Shown here: positions 138 through 61,923 of the stretch, piece after piece
Layout of the letters: each line of letters starts with the position of its first letter
Numbering within the stretch: position 1 is the first letter of the stretch
From: Eledone cirrhosa
Lineage: Eukaryota
NCBI GenBank assembly: GCA_964016885.1
Contig: OZ024746.1
Span: forward strand, 55,366,001-55,430,000
Reading direction: 5' to 3'
Length of the DNA stretch: 64,000 nt
The notes under the pieces: generated by a model
Seen by the model: only the letters and a program-made list of their open reading frames with translations
What the model was told of the DNA's origin: nothing
Databases searched by the model: none
Translations under genes and position numbers: made by a program

Positions 138-968
138 CGTTTCTGAATATGTTTAGCAAGATTCTTTATCTGAAAACGTGTGTTGAAACCGATATTGTTA
201 TACTTTGGGAGAGACATGTTGCCGATAAAAAACACACGCACCAGTTGCTTTCACTCCAAATTATTATAAATTAAATTATAAATATAAAAAAATTATAAAT
301 TTCCGGTTGGTTGGTTGGTTCCACAACTGGACGGTTGTTCATATATTGTCAAAGTTCTTTCGTCACACATTATGTGACCTCTTCAGTGACTGGGGATTAT
401 TTTCTTTGTTTTGTGCCTCTCCTTTGTTCTGTCCTACGCCATCTTGTTTTTGTGTGTGTTGTGTGCTTAGATTGCGCATGTGTTACATCCGGGTGTCTGT
501 GTGTGTTTTTATTTGTTTATTTATTTGTTTATTTACATGTTACTAGTTAGTTGTTTGTTCTATGTGTGTGTGTTTTCATTTTGTCCTTAATTGTAAGTTG
601 TGATGTTGCTATTCCATTCAATATTTTCTATTTAATTTTGGTTGGAATTCATTTACGTTTATTGCCTCTGTGATTTGTCTAAGCATTGCATCTTTTCTGT
701 GTGTAGATTTTATTTTTATTTCTATGTTCTCTAATTAGCCCTTATATTCTATTTTAGCATGTTGGTGGAGTACTGATGATTCTTTTCTATCTTGAATCTC
801 TCGCCAGTGTTCATTTATTCGTTCTCCTATACTACGAGCTGTCTCACATATGTACACTATATTCTTATCTTTACATTGTCTTTCGGTACATATTATGCTA
901 TATACTATGTTTCTAGATGCAGTTAATATGGGGGCTTAGTTTACAGATAATGCATTTATTATCTATAC
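138..968 (-). mobile_element. PLE family A: inverted 3' arm (GIY-YIG remnant + pLTR + tail)
   Basis: Reverse complement of ~1410-2100, plus a terminal extension ending ...cagaaacg at a (TA)n run. The same terminus occurs at 20782, 38695 and 43118. Confidence 0.85.
348..390 (-). ncRNA. Minimal hammerhead ribozyme (PLE family A pLTR)
   Basis: Reverse complement: GTCA CTGAAGA GGTCAC-ataatgt-GTGAC GAAA GAAC TT TGAC. Copies at 1974-2016 (+) and 42864-42906 (+). Confidence 0.7.
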
Positions 969-2103
969 TGATTGCGGATTTATTACGGGTGATGAGAAAC
1001 GTGTCCCGCATGGGCAACCCAAAAAAACTAGAGAGAAACATACAACACTTCATCCACCGTATGCAGTTTTCTGGTTACAATCAGAGAGATAAATCAGAGT
1101 ATATAGAGGAGCCAGAACTAAATGGGAAAAAATGATAAATAATGATACAAATGGGACTTGCCCCTTGCATAGGAGCAAATTTTGGAATAGAATAGAAAGA
1201 ACTAGGAATAAGGTTAACAGAATAAACTCATGGTATGATAGCAATAAATACCAGAGTGTAATGTGCATCAATACAACCCCTAGTTGTGAACTAGCTTACA
1301 CATTTAGAAGGGCCCTAGATAAACTTAAACTAAATATTAAGATGGTAGAAATACCAGGTACCTCCATAAAAACACTTATTAGTAATACATACTCTTTTCA
1401 AAGACCTCCCTGCATAGACAAAAAATGCATAATCTGTAAGCTGCAAAACTAGAAACATAGTATATAGCATAAGATGTACCGAAGGACAATGTAAAGATAA
1501 GAATATAGTGTACATAGGTGAGACAGCTCGTAGTATAGGAGAACGAATAAATGAACACTGGCGAGAGCTTCAAGATATAACAGAATCATCAGTACTCCAC
1601 CAACATGCTAAAATATAACATAATGGCTAATTAGAGAACCTAGAAATAAAAATAAAATCTACACACAGAAAAGACGCAATGCTTAGACAAATCACAGAGG
1701 CAATAAATATAAATGAACACCAACCAAAATTAAATAGAAAACATGAATGGAATAGCAACATCACAACTTACAATTAAGGACAAAATGAAAACACATACAC
1801 ATAGAACAAACAACTAACTAGTAACATGTAAATAAATAAATAAATAAACAAATAAAAACACGCACAGACACCCGGATGTAACACATGCGCAATCTAAGCA
1901 CACAACACCCACAAAAACAAGATGGCGTAGGACAGAACAAAGGAGAGGCACAAAACAAAGAAAACAATCCCCAGTCACTGAAGAGGTCAAATAATGTGTG
2001 ATGAAAGAACTTTGACAATATATAAACAACCGGCCGGTTGTGGAACCAACCAACTAACCGGAAATTTATAAATTTTTTTTAAATTTAGAATTTAATTTAT
2101 AAT
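969..2103 (+). pseudogene. 5'-truncated Penelope-like element family A (RT thumb/linker + GIY-YIG), disrupted; possibly Naiad-like
   Basis: Translation ADLLRVMRNVS..IQHFIHRMQFSGY, then SVMCINTTPSCEL..IKMVEIPG, then from 1442 CKTRNIVYSIRC..IVYIGETARSIGERINEHW..RQITEAINI..PKLNRKHEW (stop at 1777). It has frameshifts and in-frame stops. The clade call is from memory of motifs. Confidence 0.85.
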
Positions 2104-2636
2104 ATCATTGAGCCACAACTTGACCCGTTGCCACATATATATCTATGACTTTATGTATACGTAAATCTTTATATTTTATATATATATATATATATATATA
2201 TATATATATATATGTGTGTGTGTGTGTGTGTGTGTGTGTGCATATATATATATACAAATATATACATGTGTGCATGCGTGTTTATGTCTGTGTGTTCGTG
2301 TGTATGTCGTTTATGTATATTTACACACACACACACATATCTCTCTCTCTCTCTCTCTCTCTCTCTCTCTCTCTCTCTCTCTCTCTCTATATATATATAT
2401 ATATATATATATATATATATATATATATATCTCAAAGGTACTCAAAATAGTCTCATATAACAAAATAGCTCTAAGAATGAGATATTTCCGAGCCGTATAT
2501 TATGATTGAATATAATTCAATTATAATATATATATATAGCCGTCGAAACGGTTTCAGCTCAGCCGTCGGGGTCTTACTGGTTCCTATATATATATATATA
2601 TATATATATATATATATATATATTTATATATACATA

Positions 2637-59200: not shown

Positions 59201-59847
59201 AAGAAATGAGCTGACATGGCTAATTTAACCATAGTGACCAGTAACAGCCCCTACGGCCTACTATCTTTCACACACACGCACTTATATGTATACCCATACA
59301 CATACACACACATCTATATTTATACACGCACACATGTTTATACAACCTACCACCTTTCACACCCTTTGATTTCCAGCTTCTACGGCCCACTATCTTTCAC
59401 ACACACACACTCACATACATACACACCTACACATATACACACACAGTTACACACACATATATATTTACACACACATATTTTACGGCTTTCACACGCTAGC
59501 GCACCCTATTGATTTATCCCAATTGGTCAGTAGCTTTTGCCACAGCCTATCAAGCGCACGCGCATTCTTTCCCTCGTTTGAATTTTTCCCCATAACGGCA
59601 TTCCCATGTTTTAACAACAATACAACTTTCTCCGGTTTAGCCTGTTCCCCCCCTCTTGGAACTTTCCCCCGTTGATGGGCGTAAGCCCAAAATATTGGGA
59701 TTAAATCCCCACTACGGTAACCCTTCTACCTTTGTTTTGTTTTCATTTTTGTTTCTCTCAATTTTCACTTTTCTCCTATTTCTCACTAACTTCCTACCTC
59801 GAGTTTTCCCTTCTGCATTGTTGTGGCTTTCTAAACTACATATTTTA
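56300..59847 (+). mobile_element. Near full-length Penelope-like element with direct pLTRs in (TA)n
   Basis: Direct repeats 56302-56572 and 59582-59847 flank the ORF; TA runs on both sides. Confidence 0.92.
56584..59228 (+). pseudogene. PLE polyprotein (N-terminal domain, RT, GIY-YIG) with a few frameshifts/stops
   Basis: MLQANFNTL..FLKRCLKNKII; PSDKG; KIRPIVS; FSLDVVALYTSV; QISGLPMGSSLS; YSRYVDD; LAFLD; VVYKIQCDKCNKFYIGSTIRPLHVRIKKH. Confidence 0.92.
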
Positions 59848-61923
59848 TATATATATACATGTATGAAGAGTGGTGTGGTCAGGCACGGAGATACTATAAA
59901 ATAACTTACCAAATAGGATGAAGACTCTCAGAGACAGAAAAAAATGCCATTGGCCACTTCGGAGAATCGAACTTCGTATCTCCCAAATATCAGCTAGGCA
60001 CTTATAAACATTAAGCGAAGGGAACTTGACAAACCATAAGGTCTTAATTTAGGTAGTTGAATAGCAACCTTTAAATGTAAACACACCCGGTGTATAGTTA
60101 GCCGATCGGTTGGGATTTTACGAAGCGCCGAGAAGAAAAACTTAATATAAAGAGTGATATAGCATAGGCATTGAGATACGATAAAAAAAAAAAAGAACTT
60201 ATGAAAAAGGGTGAAGACATGCTTAGAGAGGGCAACAAAAGTTTTCATTGAACCGCGTATCTCAGAGATGCCGGCAAGGTGCTTCGAAATATTAAGCCAA
60301 GAGACCGTGGGAACTCATATATATATATATATATATATATATATAAGTTTATCCCGGGTTCAAAAGTGGGTAACCATAATAAGTAAGGTACTCAATACAT
60401 AGCATAGTATAAATATTTAATATAGAAATGGCTTCTATAGGACAGGACTAGAACTGTTTCATTCGGAAGAAATCATCAGGGCTTCCTGATGATTATATAT
60501 ATATATATATATATATATATATATATATATATAGGGGGGGGGGGTGCGTGCGCGTGTGTGTGTGCGTGTGCTCGCATATCTGTGTCAACGATGTGTAGGT
60601 TTTTATATTTATATATCTTTTGTTTGTTTGTTTGTACATGTGTGTATATATATATATATATATATATATATATATATACTTATAGACATGTAAGTTTGAA
60701 ACAATATACATATGAATATATATCTATATTCAGTGAATCGTTTCAGTACAGATCATTGTTATTGCTGAATGTATTAACCATAGTACCATAGTACACGTTG
60801 CTGTACATGACATGGTATTCTGATTTATCTTTGTGAGGAAATAATGTAAATATTCATAGACATCCTCTAAGATACACAGAGAAACACCTGCCCGAAAACA
60901 TTTTTTGTTTTAACAACAATCTATATATGTTAATAATGTTTGTTTAGACACACAAAAAAAGTTTGGTATATTTTAGCTAATAATTTCACTTACATCAAAT
61001 AGCTTCTAATGAACATAGATTTTAACTTTTTTTATGACGTAAGACTTTGGCAAGGTTTTTAGTATAAAATGGGAAACACACACTCATATATATATATATA
61101 GGAAAAAGTATGACCCCGACGGCAGAGCTCAAGCCGTTTCGACGGCTATTTCTGGACTAAATTAGAATTTAGTACAGAAACAGCCATCGAAACGGTCATA
61201 CTTTTTCCTATTTCCCACTCTACTACGCTAAGTATTGAGTACTCTGGTGTGTTATGGTCCATCTGGTTCCTTACCACAATTCCTTTGTTACATATATATA
61301 TATATATATATATATATATATAGGAACGAGTAGGACCCCGACGGCTGAGCTCTAGCCGTTTCGACGGCTAATTCTGGACTCTCTCTCTCTATATATATAT
61401 ATATATTGTTATATTTGGCGATAATCATGTTGTTAATATTGCCATCAACAAGAAACAGACGACGCACCATATGATGTTCGCATTATCTTTATTGTTCATT
61501 ATTCATTCGTTTGTCTAAGTTCTTTCGTCACACATCCTTTGAAAACCTCAATGAATATCTGTCTCATGCATAGATATATACGTGGTAATATCTATACATA
61601 CTTATTTATATATTATGCATACTTATTTATATATACTACAGTTTCGTGTTAACCCCTCTCTATCGGTATGTTTTTCTTCTGTTTATTTTCTTTTTCTCTC
61701 GTTCTCTTCGCTATAGTCTCTGTTTTTTTTTGTGGTTGTTTTCTTCCCTAATAACTATACCTCTTAGGTATTAGCGCTCTGTGGGTGGATGTTCTGTCTT
61801 TAATGTGCTGAAACATCAGCAACCCACAGCAGACAGCCGAAGAGCGGGAGGAGACTCATGTATGTGTTTCTCTTACGTATAAAAAAAAATTATTAGTAAC
61901 CACACAGCGCCTTTGTCACCTGA

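Follow-up and report, generated by a model that had tools for sequence, protein, structure and literature searches.

Tailed and tail-less 3′-end copies of Penelope-like elements are paired in (TA)n of Eledone cirrhosa and were probably primed from both target strands

Penelope-like elements (PLEs) are known to insert into (TA)n targets together with an inverted, 5′-truncated copy and with a tail at one end (Craig 2021, PMC8557442), and an inverted pLTR plus tail in EN+ PLEs is also described in Arkhipova et al. 2013 (PMC3846280). The formation of these inverted-plus-tail insertions was called unresolved in PMC8557442. The PLE protein PAc (Poseidon of Anolis) starts reverse transcription (RT) in vitro at two internal sites that bound the tail and lie inside the ORF start (Frangieh 2024, PMC11167929). 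Its AT-rich target is cut and extended on both strands, a dimer is predicted, and later integration steps were left unvalidated by that study (PMC11167929). The insertions analyzed here share with EN+ PLEs, as described in PMC8557442 and PMC3846280, the head-to-head inverted 5′-truncated copy, the one-end tail, the (TA)n target, a hammerhead (here predicted) in the pLTR and, in family A, a tail lying over the ORF start; the tails measure 30-40 in those descriptions and 27-81 nt here.

Insertions in the window and in the genome sample

The window is the whole 64,000-nt stretch of Eledone cirrhosa assembly GCA_964016885.1, contig OZ024746.1, positions 55,366,001-55,430,000 of the forward strand. 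Families A, L, B and K were matched through the termini quoted in an initial annotation of this DNA (A aagtataaca/cagaaacgaaa; L ttaatatcg/aaacttt.gc; B ttccta/ttccttcgtt; K gatcttata/aactcacc), all of which are present in the window, and the letters D, N and P were assigned here. Arms that carry the tail are termed long, and tail-less arms short. The copies of these families in the window are the following.

138-2104, family A PLE: two arms, a tailed antisense arm from 138 and a sense arm that includes the 3′ UTR and a remnant of GIY-YIG, its right end falling about 40 nt before the short site
2539-2584 (+), family B: lone short-end arm between two TA runs
14618-16056, family D: tandem array of a 310-bp hammerhead unit, 3.4 units in antisense meeting about 1.3 in sense; only the right end has the 27-nt tail, and the arms match at 99.75-100%
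20783-20934, family A: long+short pair, arms each about 50-105 nt
23128-23567, family K (Hydra-like PLE): long+short pair in which each arm stops at inner site 257
23797-24198, family L (Hydra-like PLE): long+short pair
24311-26980, family N: tandem array of a hammerhead unit of about 423 bp, with a tailed antisense arm on the left joined to about 4.6 tail-less sense units
27336-27721, family L: long+short pair, arms 97.7% alike across 87 nt
27771-28159, family P: short+long pair, both arms stopping at inner site 214-216
33280-33498 (+), family L: short-end arm continuing leftward, no partner seen
38250-38432 (+), family B: tailed arm with hammerhead motif, running on leftward, no partner seen
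38696-38934, family A: long+short pair, the short-end arm reaching deeper inward (188 vs 101)
39061-40012, family L: short+long pair with a SINE-like insertion nested at 39208-39324
40951-42006 (-), family P: tailed arm with an internal direct repeat, no short partner seen
42072-43116, family A: short arm on the left, joined to a tailed sense arm that retains a remnant of the endonuclease; a hammerhead motif lies near 42868-42896, and the first codons of the ORF are overlapped by the tail (43061-43116)
43172-43645, family K: older pair (short+long) interrupted by a nested SINE-like insertion
49114-49317, family B: older long+short pair
50821-51017, family B: long+short pair, its junction at the recurrent inner site (134/140)
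61098-61293, family B: short+long pair
61320-61380 (-), family B: lone short-end arm terminating exactly at inner site 140

In this stretch TA runs act as common hot targets, and neighbouring insertions occur.

Genome-wide counts were obtained from 139 evenly spaced 10-kb stretches, totaling 1.39 Mb, and cover the TA-adjacent outer ends of families A, L, B, K, P and D, with data for D consisting of the window copy and three random-sample matches; a genome search with D recovered no copy, missing even the one in the window, and carries no weight. Family N, which gave mostly noise, was omitted from this count because its short-end reference is low-complexity. Within this sample, 115 of 122 TA-flanked ends fall at the two fixed sites of their family; the ends are thus not scattered, and the initial claim that each family's two outer ends recur at the same nucleotides holds across the genome. 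A long arm is joined to a short arm in 41 of 44 inverted pairs (p=8e-10 against 0.5), and a single pair is long+long. Pairs from loci whose query gave no preference to either arm type yield the same picture (106/111 long+short, 5/111 otherwise). The window itself contains 14 two-arm long+short insertions across A, L, B, K, P, D and N, which together with the genome-wide pairs bear out the described layout of two outward-pointing 3′-end copies in (TA)n, and five one-arm copies (L ending at 33498, B at 2539-2584, B ending at 38432, B at 61320-61380 and P from 40951). When two-arm and one-arm insertions are counted, at least 59 of 88, that is at least two thirds, are two-armed, and the partner arm is absent from view in up to 29.

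The tails measure 56 nt in A, 61 in P, about 57 in N, 79 in B, 81 in K and in L, and 27 in D, correcting the earlier range of 40-100 nt to 27-81 nt. The short end had been placed where the element itself reads TA or ATAT; a TA word of at least 4 nt is found at the short site in six of seven families, and B has a 3-nt match only. Insertion lengths span 49 bp to more than 4 kb. A MITE or TIR DNA transposon inserting in TA was considered and rejected, given the asymmetric termini and the lack of a fixed length.

Predicted proteins, hammerhead motifs and tandem units

Open reading frames running from RT to endonuclease were found in family L (locus L166, 517 aa) and family K (locus L216, 599 aa); family A has RT and endonuclease pieces (L170), and endonuclease ends were found in P (L122) and B (L183). 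The GIY-YIG core residues align among the family endonucleases, and RT and GIY-YIG ORFs are oriented outward within the arms. At threshold, Pfam matched one of seven proteins, that of P (PF01541), and the RT of A, L and K was recognized through motif reading. On these predicted proteins, A, B, K, L and P are classed as EN+ Penelope-like elements, L and K showing RT followed by a C-terminal GIY-YIG domain in one ORF. In alignment, L166, L216 and window positions 35245-35721 present a CxCx5C linker, no CCHH, and CxxC and CxH around E and N. By motif, L, K and the ORF at 34225-35724 can be assigned to the Hydra clade through the described CxCx5C linker and CxxC/CxH (PMC8557442), and B through the CxxC and CxH part only, and A and P would be placed with the Neptune/Nematis clades on account of a CX4CxxC linker and a pair of cysteines inside the GIY-YIG motif (PMC8557442).

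Predicted hammerhead core motifs with a predicted stem II were located in A, L, K, P, B, D and N, core position 3 being U in B and P; an Rfam scan gave no hammerhead match at gathering score, and fold z-scores ranged from -1.9 to +0.9. The initial annotation had grouped all of these as hammerhead-bearing PLE families. This description stands for A, B, K, L and P, which combine GIY-YIG ends with predicted hammerhead motifs, and is revised for D and N, which are hammerhead tandem units with cores in most units and no ORF seen. D and N are likely non-coding derivatives of Penelope-like retrotransposons. In their tandem repeats (3.4 units of 310 bp in D, 4.2 units of about 423 bp in N), their predicted type I hammerhead motifs and the absence of any ORF seen, they resemble non-LTR retrozymes (Li et al. 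2026, 10.64898/2026.07.22.740005). They differ in bearing the inverted long+short ends of PLEs, which suggests that a PLE protein inserted them; the consulted part of that preprint does not deal with insertion ends.

In family A, the sequence of locus L015 does not stop at the long site but runs on into a 128-codon ORF start, and the tail consists of codons of that ORF. Since the ORF continues past it, the long site, which reads ATAT, is internal to the RNA. Overlap of the tail with an ORF start was seen in A and not in B, K, L or P.

Origin of the paired arms

The two arms of an insertion appear to derive from a common source. Divergence is 0.8-4.6% within pairs versus 3.7-9.5% in re-paired arms, so that arms are less, not more, diverged from each other than from other copies, and in each of the five families minor alleles recur in both arms at 2.5-17 times the frequency found in permutations. 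Family B loci from a first search, whose query spanned the junction, were left out of the junction and allele statistics, and an allele-junction association in them was rejected as a selection effect of that query. The shared alleles could reflect gene conversion between arms. Two independent insertions in one TA run, or the later loss of one tail by TA-microhomology deletion, might be entertained on the grounds that TA runs are commonly hit and neighbouring insertions occur. In that case long+short pairs should not exceed 50% and long+long pairs should be numerous, against the 41 of 44 and the one observed. TA-less junctions and alleles common to both arms do not fit either, and this explanation is very improbable. 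Fold-back chimeras of long reads or assembly, which the near-identity of the family D arms (99.75-100%) might bring to mind, are hardly credible: the shared sequence is identical in only 23 of 119 pairs, the asymmetric ends lie at family-specific sites, and some arms do not overlap. Independent short-read contigs from other runs, moreover, end in TA at the short site of family A (167 in run X1, 146 in X2) and of family K (23 in X2, 2 in X5), and such contigs also carry opposite-strand joints. Both explanations are thus unlikely because the arms share source alleles yet differ, and contigs of other runs reproduce the same short end. Loose contig ends at 23384 were rejected as support, as the window copy itself terminates there.

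The arms had been described as joined at variable 5′ truncation points, but these are not simply variable, being partly fixed at recurrent inner ends (B 140, K 257, P 215); family A inner ends show no clear hot spot, and an L277 pattern was rejected as swamped by simple repeats. Many junctions are near-perfect palindromes. An extra C follows recurrent inner ends in 29 of 43 cases versus 82 of 314, an excess spotted in the same data and set against a null that includes reference-specific variants; loci fetched later gave 6 of 14 (p=0.13; 1 of 5 in B) and did not confirm the signal. Such a C suggests the mark of a capped transcript start. The last 4-7 nt are apparently re-copied at up to five K and two P ends.

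Of 106 pairs, 45 have a short-end arm that extends further inward and 14 a tailed arm that does so, 47 are ties, and in 12 the tailed arm is confined wholly to the tail, so that there is no overlap between the arms. Short arms have a head start, which would account for part of the excess of far-reaching ones. Copying of the tailed cDNA cannot yield the 45 pairs or the 12 without overlap. This bears on a model of PMC3846280, in which priming occurs once and the cDNA or antisense template then folds back and primes itself. The source alleles common to both arms and the palindromic junctions agree with self-priming, which might explain some of the 14 tailed-arm-longer pairs and the 47 ties; in the 45 pairs, however, the tail-less arm has sequence absent from the tailed arm while itself lacking the tail, and for the 12 non-overlapping pairs the model is excluded. 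As a general explanation we regard it as quite improbable.

We propose instead that the joined tailed and tail-less 3′-end copies arise from both (TA)n strands priming reverse transcription at two fixed RNA sites, a reading to which we assign a probability of about two in three. The endonuclease would cut both strands within (TA)n; one 3′ end would prime at the short site, and the other would use the long site, which lies 27-81 nt closer to the RNA 3′ end, with 2-8 nt of TA pairing probably helping. Both cDNAs would extend toward the RNA 5′ end on template RNA from one source locus and would end either prematurely or at a recurrent site, where the capped transcript likely begins within the pLTR; their ends would then be joined, with overlaps or inserts of a few bases, and filled in. 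Which strand uses which site we infer. No target duplication is visible because (TA)n hides any. A programmed double-TPRT as the default mode, put forward in the initial annotation, fits the pairing (41/44), the predominance of two-armed insertions, the common source of the arms and the pairs that fold-back cannot form, but is not new. The self-complementarity of (TA)n, which had been thought to underlie it, is unnecessary because Adineta has the same layout with 9-10 bp target duplications (PMC3846280).

Alternatively, both cDNAs might start at the long site, with the endonuclease then cutting one arm at an internal TA word and removing its tail; resolution of an intermediate has been proposed for PLE insertion (PMC8557442). 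Such cutting would leave exactly one tail per insertion, the short-site TA word found in six of seven families is the endonuclease's type of target, the Penelope endonuclease recognizes its own tail region, as recounted in PMC11167929, and in DNA sequence short-site priming and a cut at the element's own TA word look the same. We nevertheless deem it unlikely, since reverse transcription by PAc begins in vitro at either boundary of the tail (PMC11167929), B has a TA match of just 3 nt, and the family A long site also reads ATAT, so that both start sites look alike.

Priming from both strands admits a more specific version, which we hold to be possible but doubtful: a PLE dimer might give each target strand its own TA-matching start site on one and the same capped RNA, copy to the cap in the pLTR, add a C opposite it and sometimes slip back to copy the last 4-7 nt again in a telomerase-like manner, before the cDNAs are joined. 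Paired priming would then be obligate, and PLEs of at least two clades, together with the retrozymes derived from them, would normally integrate in this way.

Comparison with known systems

This genome holds very many young and simple examples in several families, and they constrain the mechanism to a long start paired with a short one in each event, to a single source and, for many pairs, to something other than a single fold-back. Exact predictions follow for start sites and transcript 5′ ends, and palindromes of this kind can easily be mistaken in annotation for MITEs or assembly errors. Relative to EN+ PLEs as described in PMC8557442 and PMC3846280, the near-constant long+short pairing is quantified here, and many insertions are just two short 3′ ends. 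PAc start sites are non-homologous to the cut DNA and alike on both strands, so strict long+short pairing is not explained by PAc behaviour alone (PMC11167929); here the start sites coincide with TA words and differ between the arms, and the joined inverted product is not described in that paper. The layout itself and double-start priming are already known and not a discovery. What is new is the strict long+short pairing, the geometry against single-cDNA fold-back, the start-site TA words and the recurrent inner ends. L1 twin priming likewise has both strands of the target priming on a single RNA, with the cDNAs joined through microhomology; the resulting inversion has arms that do not overlap and a variable second site. 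Here, by contrast, the second site is fixed, the arms usually overlap, and the two-arm insertion is the majority outcome.

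Layout, long+short pairing and common source of the arms

The analysis was conducted on the window (G000:C6:55366001-55430000; source genome of 3.0 Gb) and on an unbiased genome-wide sample totalling 1.39 Mb, taken as 139 stretches of 10 kb at even spacing. Families A, L, B and K were mapped through the outer ends quoted in the initial annotation, D, N and P were assigned in this work, and N was left out of even-sample counts as low-complexity. (TA)n runs are very abundant in the window, where self-comparison returns 185 repeat pairs, many of them inverted and bounded by TA runs. 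In the window, 14 insertions pair a tailed with a tail-less arm, a further two-arm copy is damaged at one end, and a single arm is seen in each of another five copies.

The initial annotation had claimed that outer ends recur at fixed nucleotides, and the even sample bears this out: of the 122 outer ends that lie next to TA in families A, L, B, K, P and D, 115 fall on two sites per family, long (tailed) and short (tail-less), used about equally. Tails span 27-81 nt across families, rather than the 40-100 nt first proposed. Among 44 inverted pairs, 41 are long+short, two short+short and one long+long (41/44, p=8e-10 against 0.5), and the long+short proportion over all loci whose query favoured no arm type is 106/111. 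In 29 other genomic family A loci retrieved via the tailed end, the opposite arm ends at 56-57 in 19 and is a second tailed end in none. The count of two-arm against one-arm copies that had been called for yields at least 59 two-armed insertions out of 88 (A, L, B, K, P; even sample), while the remainder have a single arm, are interrupted or run off the edge of a sampled stretch; on closer look, 16 of 45 arms first called solo have an inverted partner segment. The smallest long+short insertion seen (locus L227:3432-3480) is a family A copy of 49 bp whose tailed arm measures 14 nt. The inverted arms at window 2638-3606, which are 88% alike and whose two outer ends share one position in TA, depart from the long+short rule and may represent a MITE or a short+short PLE pair.

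Two objections had been raised, that paired arms are separate insertions or that they are fold-back assembly artefacts, and both are unlikely. Arms within one insertion diverge by 0.8-4.6%, against 3.7-9.5% for re-paired arms, and in all five of five families minor alleles are common to paired arms far more often than in permutations; the shared part is identical in only 23 of 119 pairs. Short-read contigs from other public runs likewise have the short site as their limit and stop there in TA (167 and 146 for family A, 23 and 2 for family K), a support that covers A and K but not individually the near-identical D copy, and a strand change is present in 4 of the 15 family A joints among those listed.

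Inward reach and inner ends

Inward reach was compared in 106 pairs: it is greater for the tail-less arm in 45 (family K, 23 to 1), greater for the tailed arm in 14 and equal in 47; in 12 pairs the tailed arm ends within the tail. Since fold-back of one cDNA cannot yield sequence absent from its template, the arms of such pairs were copied separately. The excess reach of the short arm would fit two reverse transcriptases on one RNA, although the head start of that arm should account for part of it.

Inner junctions, initially described as variable, include recurrent stops at B140 (16/28 arms reaching the site), K257 (19/54) and P215-216 (8/35 and 11/28), compared with a mean stop rate of 1-5% per position. 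Each of these sites, named by family and position, is an A after a pyrimidine on the sense strand, and the next cDNA base is C in 29 of 43 stops there versus 82 of 314 elsewhere. C plus the last 4-7 nt is repeated at up to five K and two P ends, some possibly partner arm; at loci L338, L288, L184, L147 and L280, where the repeat occurs once or twice, this suggests slip-back re-copying at the template end. An extra C plus repeat is the trace expected from 5' cap copying, as in other retroelements. Loci retrieved once this reading had been formulated replicated the K site (8/12 stop), but their C excess fell short of significance (6/14, p=0.13; B 1/5). We consider the odds about even that the recurrent inner sites are capped transcript starts.

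Family identity and other elements in the window

Long copies carry outward-pointing ORFs, which in L and K extend from RT into the endonuclease, in A hold pieces of both, and in P and B hold endonuclease ends. GIY-YIG core residues align across the families' endonuclease parts; Pfam search named family P only. Judged on sequence motifs described in PMC8557442, L and K look Hydra-like and A and P Neptune/Nematis-like, and B has C-terminal motifs that match those described for Hydra. A type I hammerhead-like motif lies 5' of the short site in every family; Rfam search gave no hammerhead match in these families, and the motif folds no more stably than shuffles. Families D and N consist of hammerhead-like units in tandem. 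The hammerhead-like cores of B (window 38250-38300) and P (27985-28015) have U at position 3, A at position 8 and U/A in place of C-G.

Other elements in the window
56302-59847: long one-arm PLE; direct 271-bp pLTRs (56302-56572, 59582-59847), 94% alike
34074-37252: Hydra-like PLE, 5'-truncated; 499-codon open stretch, 1.5-kb 3' UTR
19485-22801, 40401-40848: further repeat family; copies lie between TA runs, both in tandem and inverted
8249-12973, 39208-39324, 43379-43567, 53345-53555, 55635-55760: abundant SINE-like repeat, ~200 bp
3895-4130: old D-related inverted pair; symmetric ends, no TA flanks

The PLE at 56302-59847 encodes RT (PF00078) and GIY-YIG (PF01541) in frameshifted pieces and has a 69% relative at 62895-64000 (minus strand). 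No inverted arm was seen at the Hydra-like PLE, which is flanked by TA runs. The SINE-like repeat is partly tandem and nested within PLE arms.

Proposed mechanism and comparison with known elements

The observed layout, long+short pairing and common source of the arms would most likely arise if the endonuclease cut both strands in (TA)n and each cut 3' end primed reverse transcription at one or other of two fixed sites on the RNA. The two cDNAs would then grow 5'-ward on RNA from a single source before their ends were joined. The short end had been placed at the element's own TA word, and such a word of at least 4 nt lies there in six of seven families, with a 3-nt match in B. At locus L015 the family A long site reads ATAT, and an ORF that begins with the family A tail runs on beyond this site, placing the long site inside the RNA. 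The main rival, rather improbable in our estimation, is that the endonuclease cuts off one tail at an internal TA word. Double-strand cutting and two start sites are known from the Poseidon of Anolis element (PAc); we infer the strand-to-site assignment, TA pairing, cap and joining step.

A literature search, with subscription papers mostly outside its reach, found no statement of strict long+short pairing or of a cap signature. PMC8557442 describes a 5'-truncated copy in inverted orientation, (TA)n targets and a tail of 30-40 bp that often occurs at one end only, terming the mechanism undefined; PMC3846280 reports this head-to-head layout too, there with target duplications of 9-10 bp, and puts forward self-priming; PMC8969392 lists inverted pLTRs and 3' extensions among standard features; and PMC11167929 shows for PAc that both strands are cut and extended and that two internal RT start sites bound the tail, with a dimer predicted. 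The layout is real and general, an already known PLE architecture found here in new families, for which our analysis puts numbers on the pairing rule and names start sites that can be tested.
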